IMG/VR virus record: IMGVR_UViG_3300021968_000055
Coordinates: 1 to 45,960 of that record
Source of the DNA: a virus
Taxonomy: Duplodnaviria; Caudoviricetes
Reading direction: 5' to 3' (one strand)
DNA length: 45,960 nt
Part shown: in pieces, positions 41,073-42,711 of the stretch
How positions within the stretch are numbered: position 1 is the stretch's first letter
Layout of the letters: every line of letters begins with the position of its first letter
The notes under the pieces: generated by a model
Seen by the model: only the letters and a program-made list of their open reading frames with translations
The model's database searches: none
What the model was told of the DNA's origin: nothing
Program-made: the position numbers and the translations under genes

Positions 41073-42320
41073 TTAAGAAATAACCATGACTGCAAATTCA
41101 GGGTTAATTGCAACACCACCAATCACATCCAAACGGTCTAATTGAATGTAATTTCTGATATCTGCACCTAAACTGTAGGTCATCGCTAATTTGTACAAGT
41201 CGCTATAGGTTGTGATTGCATCAACACCACCTTTCAATTCCTTGATTGGAGGAGCTGCAAAAACGATAGCTTGGTTATGGAAGGCAATAGAAACATTGTG
41301 ATCATCAACCAATAATATTTGTGCGCCTTGAGGAATAGCTGCACTAATATTTTGACGAGCACCTGAAATAACAATTGTTGGACTAACTGGAATGTCAGCA
41401 GTTGTACCATTCGCGGAAATAACATCAGCCGTCACAACAAATTGAGCAGTTGTTTCTAATGGGGCATATGTTAAAGGATTAACCATGAACACATCAGCAG
41501 CAATATCAATGGTTAGTAAATCACCTTTTTTAAACACTAGCGTACCAGGAGCTTGACCAAGACCAGTTACAGAAATGGTATTGCCACCAGTAATCGGGCC
41601 GTTTGTAACCGTTCCAGCTAATTTGAAACCAGTTGGAGGAGAGCCACCTAATTGGCCTGCACCAGCAACTTGACGGGTTAAGAAATTAGTCTTGAAGAAA
41701 TCAAAACCGGCTAAATGACCAATAAAGCCATCTAATAATGCACCACGATTCACAGTCATGTTGAACACATTATGTAAATCATTAGATAAAGATGCAGATA
41801 CACGAGGAGGGTTAGCAAAGTAACGATTGCCATCTTCAGGTATGCCCAATTCAGTCATATACGCATCTGTTTGAAGAACGGTATTGAAATCAATTGGAAC
41901 ACCAGCAGTACCAATAAATTGGAAAATACTAGTTTGAAGGTTTTCAGCAGCAATGAATTTTTCAACATCATTAGCTAAGGTCTTGGCACGTGGGTTCAAC
42001 ATCATATCGAGATATGGCTGGTCACGAGCGCGATCAAAAGTTAATTCCATGCCATTGAACTCAACCATGGTGTGGAACTGTGTATCAATGGTGAGAGGAC
42101 GGATAACTTGTACGCGAGCTTCTGAAACAGCAGTTGCACCACGACCACCGAGATATCTTTCTTCTAAACGGTAGTTAATGGTTTGGCCGGTTGCATATTT
42201 TAGACCTTTGAAGTCACCTTCAAGGTTACGATTAGCTACTTTTGCAAAATTTAGATAATTTACAAATCGGACGAACACTTCGTCCAATACATATTGGGTA
42301 GTATTAAAGGTATTTGGCAT
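41073..42320 (-). CDS. Major capsid protein, P22 gp5-like
   Basis: GQTINYR, LANDVE, GHLAGFD, IAFHNQA, RLDVIGG..NPEFA; ATG 42320. Confidence 0.93.
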   Translation of the reverse strand: MPNTFNTTQYVLDEVFVRFVNYLNFAKVANRNLEGDFKGLKYATGQTINYRLEERYLGGRGATAVSEARVQVIRPLTIDTQFHTMVEFNGMELTFDRARDQPYLDMMLNPRAKTLANDVEKFIAAENLQTSIFQFIGTAGVPIDFNTVLQTDAYMTELGIPEDGNRYFANPPRVSASLSNDLHNVFNMTVNRGALLDGFIGHLAGFDFFKTNFLTRQVAGAGQLGGSPPTGFKLAGTVTNGPITGGNTISVTGLGQAPGTLVFKKGDLLTIDIAADVFMVNPLTYAPLETTAQFVVTADVISANGTTADIPVSPTIVISGARQNISAAIPQGAQILLVDDHNVSIAFHNQAIVFAAPPIKELKGGVDAITTYSDLYKLAMTYSLGADIRNYIQLDRLDVIGGVAINPEFAVMVIS

Positions 42321-42460
42321 AGTCGATTCCTTCGACAATGATTAATAAAATCCCGTAATGGGAAATCCATTTTTCATTTGTCGAGCGGACGACTAGATAG
42401 AACTACGCGCCTTGTTATTACTGGTGACGGAACCGTGTAGCTACTCATCAATGCAATAAC
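42320..42460 (-). promoter_or_regulatory. Structured capsid mRNA leader with RBS-occluding hairpin
   Basis: TAGTCG-TCC-GC-TCGACAAATGA pairs with TCATTGTCGA-A-GGA-AT-CGACTA(TG). Confidence 0.65.
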
Positions 42461-42527
42461 TGATTAAATTATGCACCATTTTAACTATGGAAAGCAATAC
42501 CAGCCTATGATAACCTGCGCAAAACAA

Positions 42528-42605
42528 ATCTATCTCGACGGAGAGAAAAGCCAGCTCATCACTGGCCTGATTTGTCCCACTAGATGAATGCACTTGATGA
42601 GGTGA
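42528..42605 (+). ncRNA. Candidate structured small RNA / leader
   Basis: Closing stem ATCTA/TAGAT, hairpins TCTC-GACG-GAGA and GCCAG-CTCATCA-CTGGC; loop complementary to TGATGAG. Confidence 0.5.
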
Positions 42606-42609
42606 TATA

Positions 42610-42711
42610 ATGACTGAAAAAGCAAAAGATATACTTTGGAATGTGCTGTATTATGGCTCATGGTTTCTCATTATAATTATTATTCTTGGAGAAATATTTC
42701 ATTGGTTTTAA
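42610..42711 (+). CDS. 33-aa membrane peptide
   Basis: GAGGTG RBS; MTEKAKDILWNVLYYGSWFLIIIIILGEIFHWF. Confidence 0.6.
   Translation: MTEKAKDILWNVLYYGSWFLIIIIILGEIFHWF

Follow-up and report, generated by a model that had tools for sequence, protein, structure and literature searches.

How is translation of the coat protein governed in a tailed phage whose coat and scaffolding genes are not adjacent? This question is raised by a 45,960-nucleotide (nt) stretch of DNA, hereinafter the window, which is a single virus record (Duplodnaviria; Caudoviricetes; IMG/VR IMGVR_UViG_3300021968_000055) and in which the leader of a P22-like major capsid gene stands back to back with a small structured RNA. 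An initial annotation of the window had proposed an RNA switch at this place: the ribosome-binding site (RBS) of the capsid mRNA would be occluded by a hairpin, and the divergent RNA would dock on the leader in trans through four complementary boxes and open it. The switch-like leader with its RBS in a conserved rod was borne out by our analysis, and the divergent RNA as its trigger was not. By comparison across relatives, the leader is instead composed of tandem pseudoknot units, the last of which overlaps the arm that hides the RBS. On balance, we lean towards reading it as a translational ON switch, separate from the back-to-back int-alpA cassette, which would control only its own downstream gene.

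Covarying pseudoknot units in the capsid leader

The elements of the capsid transcript in the window are the following:

41073–42320, minus strand: major capsid protein, P22-coat family, 415 amino acids (aa), ATG at 42320–42318 (PHROG 283, E 7.7e-42; PF11651, E 1.2e-18).
42468–42497, minus strand: predicted sigma70-type capsid promoter, with −35 TTGCTT (42497–42492), 18 nt, and −10 CATAAT (42473–42468); 8/12 consensus matches.
42423–42451, minus strand: pseudoknot unit 1, with 5′ strand UUGAUG (42451–42446), box AGUA and hairpin 42434–42423, whose loop C-CGUC(A) pairs with the 5′ strand.
42380–42411, minus strand: pseudoknot unit 2, with GGCG-CGUA (42411–42404) and hairpin 42393–42380, loop UC-CGCU.
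42320–42395, minus strand: RBS-occluding rod (predicted OFF state), in which segment b (42383–42374) pairs with segment c (42341–42333) and the unit-2 arm with the Shine–Dalgarno (SD) sequence (42332–42327) and spacer.

From 80 loci encoding capsids 70–93% identical to that of the window we retrieved 70 distinct leaders, the window's included. These leaders span about 130–150 nt, and predicted sigma70-like promoters scoring at least 9/12 stand at the matching place in 60/70 of them. Seven loci belonging to one group of relatives (L026, L028, L031, L033, L036, L049 and L054) additionally show paired ACCGAATTCGGT-like palindromes just upstream of the capsid −35, which might be operators or terminator stems. 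The leaders carry a repeated knot of about 30 nt in which NRNG-HGUA is followed by a variable linker and then by a hairpin with a loop ending C-CNYN, the CNYN pairing back to the NRNG. Knot pairs seen among them include GAUG/CAUC, GACG/CGUC, GAAG/CUUC, GGUG/CACC, GGAG/CUCC and GGGG/CCCC, and the linker lengths vary widely. Under a relaxed rule, two units are present in 54 of the 70 leaders, three in 3, one in 12 and none in 1; the three-unit leaders are those of L013, L056 and L067, the last with a variant box. In the window, unit 1 contains both of the boxes that the initial annotation had matched to the divergent RNA as mirrors (GACGGA and CTCATCA): the unit-1 knot is formed by the strands UGAUGAG and UCCGUC, and the boxes are therefore explained by pairing with each other. 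The hairpin arm of unit 2, together with its CC, doubles as the anti-SD arm of the rod. Since unit 1 lies outside the rod and nonetheless has the same invariant unpaired G-H-G and CC as unit 2, the pair points to repeated binding sites.

When the units were anchored without requiring the knot, the three variable pairs were all Watson–Crick in 35/60 leaders for unit 1 (shuffled mean 11.8, maximum 20) and in 51/68 for unit 2 (shuffled mean 16.2, maximum 32), and most of the non-Watson–Crick cases look like one-base register slips in C runs. In MAFFT alignments the knot helix is 98.5% paired (67 distinct rows) and 95.7% paired (47 rows), and none of 500 shuffles reached the whole-structure pairing or covariation score; for the unit-1 alignment, 10/56 rows were omitted, nine as near-duplicates and one for its long insert. 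G-U outnumbers A-C at the knot pairs (13:7 in unit 1 and 13:2 in unit 2) and the reverse strand gives 0/38 matches, which disfavours a reading of the units as DNA operators.

The motif is tightly confined. The whole window contains exactly two units, both in the capsid leader (0–2 per shuffled window in 10 shuffles), and across the 80 loci (806 kilobases, kb) 140 unit matches fall in leaders versus 10 elsewhere. Among 20 whole genomes, strict units occur at the capsid leader in 18, and the 11 other matches are single and scattered; with no tandem copies elsewhere in these 20 genomes, we rejected a late-gene regulon with a shared motif. Likewise, 30 of the 32 matches to the unit-2 pattern over IMG/VR are capsid leaders of this phage family. 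A held-out set of 80 loci yielded 38 new distinct leaders (39 were already seen or duplicate and 3 too short), of which 27 have two units, five have one and six have none (32/38 with a unit), each of two controls giving 0/38. Under the strict rule, two units were recovered in 25, one in 13 and none in 8 of 46 new metagenome leaders; by eye, two of these eight are mis-anchored behind an intron and six have box variants. A group I intron was seen near the capsid gene start at L012:1205–1415 (RF00028, 81.3 bits), and similar ones by eye in L074, L075, L346 and L353. Full-length capsids outside the clade begin at 41% identity. In one locus at that identity the upstream ORF (open reading frame) ends 7 nt before the coat gene, and three cultured relatives (27% identity) have an ORF, annotated as scaffold or of scaffold size, that ends 20–30 nt before it; accordingly, these four have no room for such a leader. 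The comparative evidence thus establishes, at the level of sequence, that the leader is made of two covarying pseudoknot units restricted to capsid leaders.

The leader has no Rfam match at E≤10, and we found no description of it in the literature searched, which left out most subscription journals. A large published screen of IMG/VR includes one structured RNA candidate, DNAVirus_7287 (Fremin et al., 2023; PMC10690425), with 14 occurrences no more than 25 nt upstream of P22_CoatProtein genes. It is 103 nt long and terminator-flagged, and all 48 of its sequences are host-associated, whereas the two best DNA sources of the window are soil metagenome runs; despite these differing metadata, the two may be identical.

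A conserved rod hides the ribosome-binding site and excludes the second unit

The pairing of 42395–42374 with 42341–42320, claimed by the initial annotation to bury the RBS, is indeed the minimum-energy fold of the leader (−32.4 kcal/mol, z −4.07, reached by 0/200 shuffles), with 4/6 SD bases and the A of the ATG paired; its apical hairpin (42363–42351) is followed by a U-rich tract. In free folds of 69 leaders the unit-2 hairpin is favoured in none, and in 52 its 5′ arm plus CC pairs with the SD and spacer, the 3′ arm pairing with the segment just before the SD. The median cost of opening the RBS in these leaders falls from 10.4 kcal/mol in the free state to 6.2 when unit 2 is held, and to 3.3 when nothing but the inner stem (b:c) is formed, and the free leader is more closed than the knot state in 62/69. 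Holding unit 2 makes the SD core more open in 61/68 leaders and less open in 2 (0.98 vs 0.28 in the window); in this knot state most of the core is unpaired (median 0.74). A more open SD core is likewise seen in 27/31 held-out leaders. Compared with the partners of other leaders, a leader's own partners pair clearly better for b:c (−6.6 vs −4.9) and slightly better for anti-SD:SD (−7.8 vs −7.2).

Comparison thus supports, from sequence conservation, a rod whose anti-SD arm is overlapped by unit 2, and folding predicts that the rod wins without help and that the SD opens once unit 2 is held. On this comparative and predicted evidence, the leader has what characterizes a translational riboswitch, namely two folds of which only one can form at a time, a conserved sensor fold and one that sequesters the RBS. 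Since the two conserved folds exclude each other and the covarying knot is the less stable, something presumably holds the knot. We envisage that the capsid mRNA would be transcribed from its dedicated promoter and that unit 2 would be captured within the 40-odd nt that precede closure of the rod. The bound partner, probably a protein of the phage, would keep this second knot folded and thereby prevent the RBS-hiding rod, and might bind the two or three units cooperatively.

What might hold the knot

Two genes of the window code for candidate ligands:

13776–14672, minus strand: scaffolding protein gene (PHROG 8865), apart from the capsid gene; candidate leader ligand.
40811–41017, minus strand: 68-aa ORF directly after the capsid gene, conserved in 20/20 genomes; second, weak candidate ligand.

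Our favoured candidate, put forward tentatively, is the scaffolding protein. Its gene is present in 20/20 whole genomes; it lies within 700 nt of the capsid gene in 33/69 loci, farther away in 16 and outside the locus in 20; of the 49 loci with the gene, 16 have it 700 nt or more away. The scaffold of P22, of the same virion lineage, has a reported role in translational autoregulation; gp8, however, regulates its own synthesis, whereas here the motif occurs only before the capsid gene (strict units in 18/20 genomes). It is conceivable, with the odds against it, that free scaffold binds the tandem pseudoknots on the nascent capsid mRNA and licenses coat translation on demand. That the ligand is some other phage protein we hold, overall, to be a slimmer prospect. 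The 68-aa ORF gave a structural model (predicted local distance difference test 82) with a 50-residue beta-alpha domain and invariant F, G and W. We set it aside as an RNA-binding ligand, there being no meaningful Pfam, PDB-sequence or atlas match; its best fold match (Z 2.6, root-mean-square deviation 4.2, 53 aligned) and the several ribosomal chains among the rows are too weak to use.

Several observations weigh against the ON switch. One unit or none is present in 13/70 leaders, and none in 6/38 held-out and 8/46 metagenome leaders (strict rule). The rows of the MAFFT alignments were pre-selected by a script demanding three knot pairs, and the shuffle tests ignore relatedness, which inflates all of them. 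The covariation of the anti-SD is small and one control pairing also reaches p=0.019, and a role of unit 2 as a covarying anti-start-codon was dropped, the codon-2 covariation not being significant (18 vs 17.7 shuffled). ViennaRNA folds were computed without pseudoknot scoring, the knot state being imposed as a constraint. In many leaders the constrained knot state is over 10 kcal/mol less stable than the rod, and capture of the knot would therefore need to be kinetic or tight. Moreover, a local SD hairpin is still possible with unit 2 held (6.2 vs 3.3 kcal/mol for the inner stem only), and for this reason the polarity is not certain. Finally, a U-rich tail stands behind the apical hairpin in 45/69 leaders and fits attenuation.

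The point on polarity leads to an alternative that we consider unlikely, in which ribosomes load in a transient state with only b:c formed, the rod acts as a later-closing timer, and a knot-binding protein (unassembled capsid or the 68-aa product) locks the local SD hairpin and represses; the polarity would then be opposite, or no ligand needed. The b:c-only state is the most open one (median 3.3 kcal/mol) and is the first to form when the window leader is folded stepwise, and T4 gp32 is reported to repress its own mRNA (PMC535899) through a pseudoknot in the 5′ leader, where the bound phage protein sets translation (PMC10690425). However, a repressor would add little, given that 62/69 leaders are already more closed when free than in the knot state, and the SD core in the knot state is, as given above, mostly unpaired. 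The T4 gene 32 leader resembles the present one in having a pseudoknot in a phage 5′ leader; it differs in serving autogenous repression of a protein that binds single-stranded DNA, whereas here two or three tandem units precede a capsid gene, and the last of them excludes an RBS rod with a predicted ON polarity.

Control at the level of transcription, which we judge improbable, would have the tandem units act on the polymerase like HK022 put, or recruit an antiterminator, with readthrough of the apical hairpin and U-tract and of later terminators. The put element is described as a two-stem nascent RNA binding polymerase (PMC9378689) and may resemble the leader in having two folded domains side by side on a nascent phage transcript; of the 52 leaders in which both were scored, 33 have unit 1 starting 5–6 nt past the −10 element, and at least five U of eight follow the apical hairpin in the aforesaid 45/69. 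Against this, put has two unlike stems, whereas here one motif is repeated and its last copy overlaps the SD-pairing arm. In addition, the apical hairpins are weak (mostly −2.4 to −6.5 kcal/mol), with none qualified in 17/69, the U-tract also pairs inside the rod, and the complementarity of unit 2 to the SD is left unexplained.

Translational ON riboswitches with pseudoknot aptamers have a compact knot whose invariant loop bases overlap an anti-SD platform. The leader, for its part, has a compact knot in which G-H-G and CC are invariant and unpaired, a tandem arrangement of this knot and an expression platform that overlaps it. Each unit could accordingly be a mini-aptamer, the tandem pair sensing a host or infection metabolite and opening the capsid RBS. 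We find this very improbable: the motif occurs only before one structural gene of one phage clade, its linker lengths vary widely and it matches no riboswitch in Rfam. The favoured reading remains a translational ON switch with a bound partner, probably a protein.

The divergent int-alpA RNA and its cargo

On the other side of the intergenic region, the window has the following elements:

42506–42511, plus strand: predicted −10 element (TATGAT) of a divergent promoter, inferred to serve the int-alpA cassette.
42523–42590, plus strand: int-alpA RNA (Rfam RF02996), a three-way junction with loop 1 GACG(GA) and loop 2 CUCAUCA; 45.9 bits against a gathering cut-off of 35.8, E 4.1e-8.
42582–42602, plus strand: two cis boxes complementary to loop 2, AGATGA (42582–42587) and TGATGAGG (42595–42602), the latter overlapping the RBS.
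42610–42711, plus strand: 33-aa ORF, hydrophobic in its C-terminal half and carried as cargo by the int-alpA cassette; no PHROG or Pfam match.

The structured plus-strand segment reported by the initial annotation is real in prediction (z −2.92, 2/200 shuffles), folding into a three-way junction with two hairpins that place GACGGA and CUCAUCA in loops; compensatory changes are visible in its alignment. The cmscan search against Rfam that had been suggested as a check identified it as the catalogued int-alpA, matched in a permissive scan over model positions 1–71 of 71, while a fast gathering scan gave no match. The window RNA thus exceeds the family cut-off across the full model and has its CUAG, GACG loop, GAAAAG and two-hairpin junction. 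A TATAAT or TATGAT stands just before the int-alpA RNA in L014, L017, L020 and L050 as well.

A search with a first-hairpin pattern, which selects for GACG, returned at least 120 loci, with 83 distinct RNAs among the matches listed; the counts of this survey refer to those matches. Loop 2 is hypervariable, with 78 distinct loops in 82 RNAs, and has a perfect downstream complement of at least 5 nt in 61/82 (shuffled mean 21, maximum 33) and a second one of at least 4 nt in 60/82 (shuffled mean 27, maximum 38). In a separate set of 14 int-alpA RNAs paired with their capsid leaders, a permutation test of loop 2 against its own downstream region gave p=0.0013 (two pairs, unparsed, were scored zero). 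This hypervariability coupled with complementarity to two downstream boxes points to a cis leader, at odds with the Rfam filing of the family as 'Gene; sRNA'. Of 79 downstream ORFs, 57 were scanned, 18 coding for HNH or endonuclease VII domains and three for DUF1376. In the window, too, cis pairing is possible between the CUCAUCA loop and the box at the 33-aa ORF's RBS, a prediction in which we agree with the initial annotation, as we do on the ORF itself (42610–42711). We consider int-alpA likely to be a portable leader whose loop 2, as modelled, toggles between a proximal box and the cargo RBS box. Reportedly, the family originates with the work of Weinberg and colleagues in 2017. Elsewhere, in the portions of the literature available to us, 'int-alpA' appears as the name of a gene order or as a listed Rfam match, and pairing with downstream boxes is not described there. 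In T4-like phages an RNA structure is reported to keep the RBS of homing endonuclease genes closed (I-TevI, segB, mobE; PMC2988022). The frequent position of int-alpA before HNH or endonuclease VII genes (18/57) recalls this arrangement; those are, however, simple hairpins bypassed by a late promoter, whereas int-alpA has a loop with two alternative downstream boxes.

The cargo in the window comprises the 33-aa ORF and a 66-aa ORF with a weak XhlA-like coiled-coil match, and the inspected cassettes of relatives carry unrelated ORFs at the position of the former. A 30-nt direct repeat (93%; 42696–42725 and 42933–42962) covers the ends of both ORFs, which terminate alike in F-H-W-(F/L)-stop, as if the 66-aa ORF had arrived as a 237-base-pair (bp) unit. 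An int-alpA-like RNA at L020:5746–5808 lies directly behind the stop codon of the upstream gene and lacks a cargo ORF; read on the capsid strand, the second hairpin plus U run of this RNA is terminator-like, as is 42550–42566 in the window. In L194, a distant P22-like phage (capsid 26% identical), int-alpA and an endonuclease VII gene are divergent from a promoter-like region.

The int-alpA RNA is a poor candidate for a trans-acting trigger

The initial annotation had int-alpA loops and tail dock in trans on the leader and open the capsid RBS, which might hold at least in phages carrying the cassette. The positions on which it built are accurate: GACGGA at 42426 and 42537, CTCATCA at 42444 and 42555, ATTTGTC at 42376 and 42570, ACTAGAT at 42392 and 42579, and TGATGAG at 42595, with the 12-nt spacing of GACGGA and CTCATCA found at only these two places in the window. 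The ATTTGTC and ACTAGAT matches stand as positions, with two qualifications: ATTTGTC, being part of the int-alpA closing stem, is not free, and the gap between the two boxes is 9 nt in the leader versus 2 nt in the RNA. Sharing of this kind is modestly above chance, as at least three shared 7-mers occur in 195 of 18,216 genomic 58-nt windows (1.1%) and at least four 6-mers shared with the leader in 900 (4.9%). The spaced box pair is found in 1/70 leaders, that of the window, and ATCTAGT in 2/70; both are absent from the 38 held-out leaders.

Co-occurrence and covariation speak against the model. Of the 80 relatives, 50 were searched; int-alpA exceeded the cut-off in 6/50 of these records, and any match was seen in 2/28 records at least 90% complete. 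A covariance model built from eight local copies found it in 2/20 whole genomes, one copy about 9 kb from the capsid start. Applied to another 96 loci, this model yielded nine matches, which include duplicates of known copies. On a quick tree of 68 capsid proteins (L012 and L074 left out), the eight rows with int-alpA are scattered, requiring eight changes. Conversely, a capsid homologue is present in the listed locus for 6 of the 83 distinct int-alpA RNAs. Among 14 pairs of int-alpA loops and their own leader (two, unparsed, scored 0) no covariation was detected (permutation p=0.149 for loop 1 and 0.148 for loop 2), nor was cognate int-alpA–leader pairing better in an 8×8 energy matrix. Across relatives the capsid leader covaries as tandem cis pseudoknots and not with the int-alpA loops. 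We therefore rejected trans pairing of int-alpA with the capsid leader, as the two neither covary nor co-occur. The boxes were also considered as recombination sites from the split of scaffold and capsid genes; this was discarded, no copy being found near the scaffold end or elsewhere.

Structured prophage RNAs that act by pairing are well known, among them P1 C4 and P4 CI/seqA/seqC. The window has no Rfam C4 or isrK match at E≤1, and int-alpA differs from these in showing neither covariation nor co-occurrence with the capsid leader. The statement that no equivalent had been described was mistaken as to mechanism: Gifsy-1 IsrK is reported to act in trans, shifting an inactive mRNA fold and freeing a sequestered RBS (PMC4825925). 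Together with this precedent, four exact boxes in one genome (1–5% by chance), a 5-nt leader match of loop 1 GACGG in 4/6 cassettes with a GACG loop, recurrence of the cassette 186–209 nt from the capsid ATG, and the fact that the RBS would be at its most open if the 5′ half of unit 2 were captured by a strand, all speak for the trans model. We nevertheless hold it to be highly improbable, since int-alpA is missing from 18/20 whole genomes, its loop boxes match unit 1, outside the rod, its GACG loop, the consensus of the Rfam family, is also present in RNAs lacking such a capsid gene in their locus, about 77 of the 83 distinct ones (the pattern itself having selected GACG), and loop 2 is accounted for by its own downstream boxes.

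Genomic context

The window comprises a P22-like podophage of about 36 kb, with terminases, portal, scaffold, coat, head closure, ejection and tail genes, and a plasmid-like remainder (about 1–9.9 kb) with a primase, two toxin–antitoxin pairs, a rep-like gene, ParA and an integrase. The phage part is bounded by a 162-bp direct repeat (94%; 9920–10081 and 45799–45960); the whole could be either a prophage in a plasmid or an assembly join. Within the phage, the coat (41073–42320) and scaffold (13776–14672) genes lie far from each other. ParA of the plasmid-like segment shows 62% identity to Piscirickettsia plasmid proteins, and three metagenome-assembled genome matches bear three unrelated labels, indicating no consistent host. 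DNA contigs from two runs of one sample, which may be the one that the window came from, span the capsid-leader/int-alpA region, with no differences listed. No RNA data set is among the listed sources of the window, a result neutral as to expression.

Other features of the window include a 387-aa ORF (26653–27816, plus strand) that lacks a PHROG or Pfam match, occurs in 18/20 genomes and is not on the strand of the virion genes but on the other one; a perfect inverted repeat of 22 bp (21877–21898/22080–22101) after a helicase-like gene; tandem repeats within the rep-like gene (5262–5860); and a duplicated small ORF (45314–45405 and 45512–45594).

Implications for the phage family

Of the two RNAs at this locus, int-alpA is thus already catalogued, an accessory element likely acting on its own gene, and the tandem-pseudoknot capsid leader is likely what is new, as a switch. 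The former is an orphan Rfam family that gains a testable function as a portable leader, with a variable loop matching two boxes before cargo genes that often code for HNH nucleases. The latter is a compact, family-wide candidate for positive control of coat translation, and natural compensatory variants of it are in hand, making it directly testable. Irrespective of what binds it, a repeated 30-nt knot that overlaps an anti-SD arm would count as a novel motif among regulatory RNAs, and it may be of use as a synthetic-biology part. Matching of coat to scaffold in tailed phages is known mainly from the autoregulation of the P22 scaffold. If the scaffolding protein is indeed the ligand here, this would be a family in which transcription of scaffold and coat has been uncoupled and stoichiometry is restored through an RNA ON switch.

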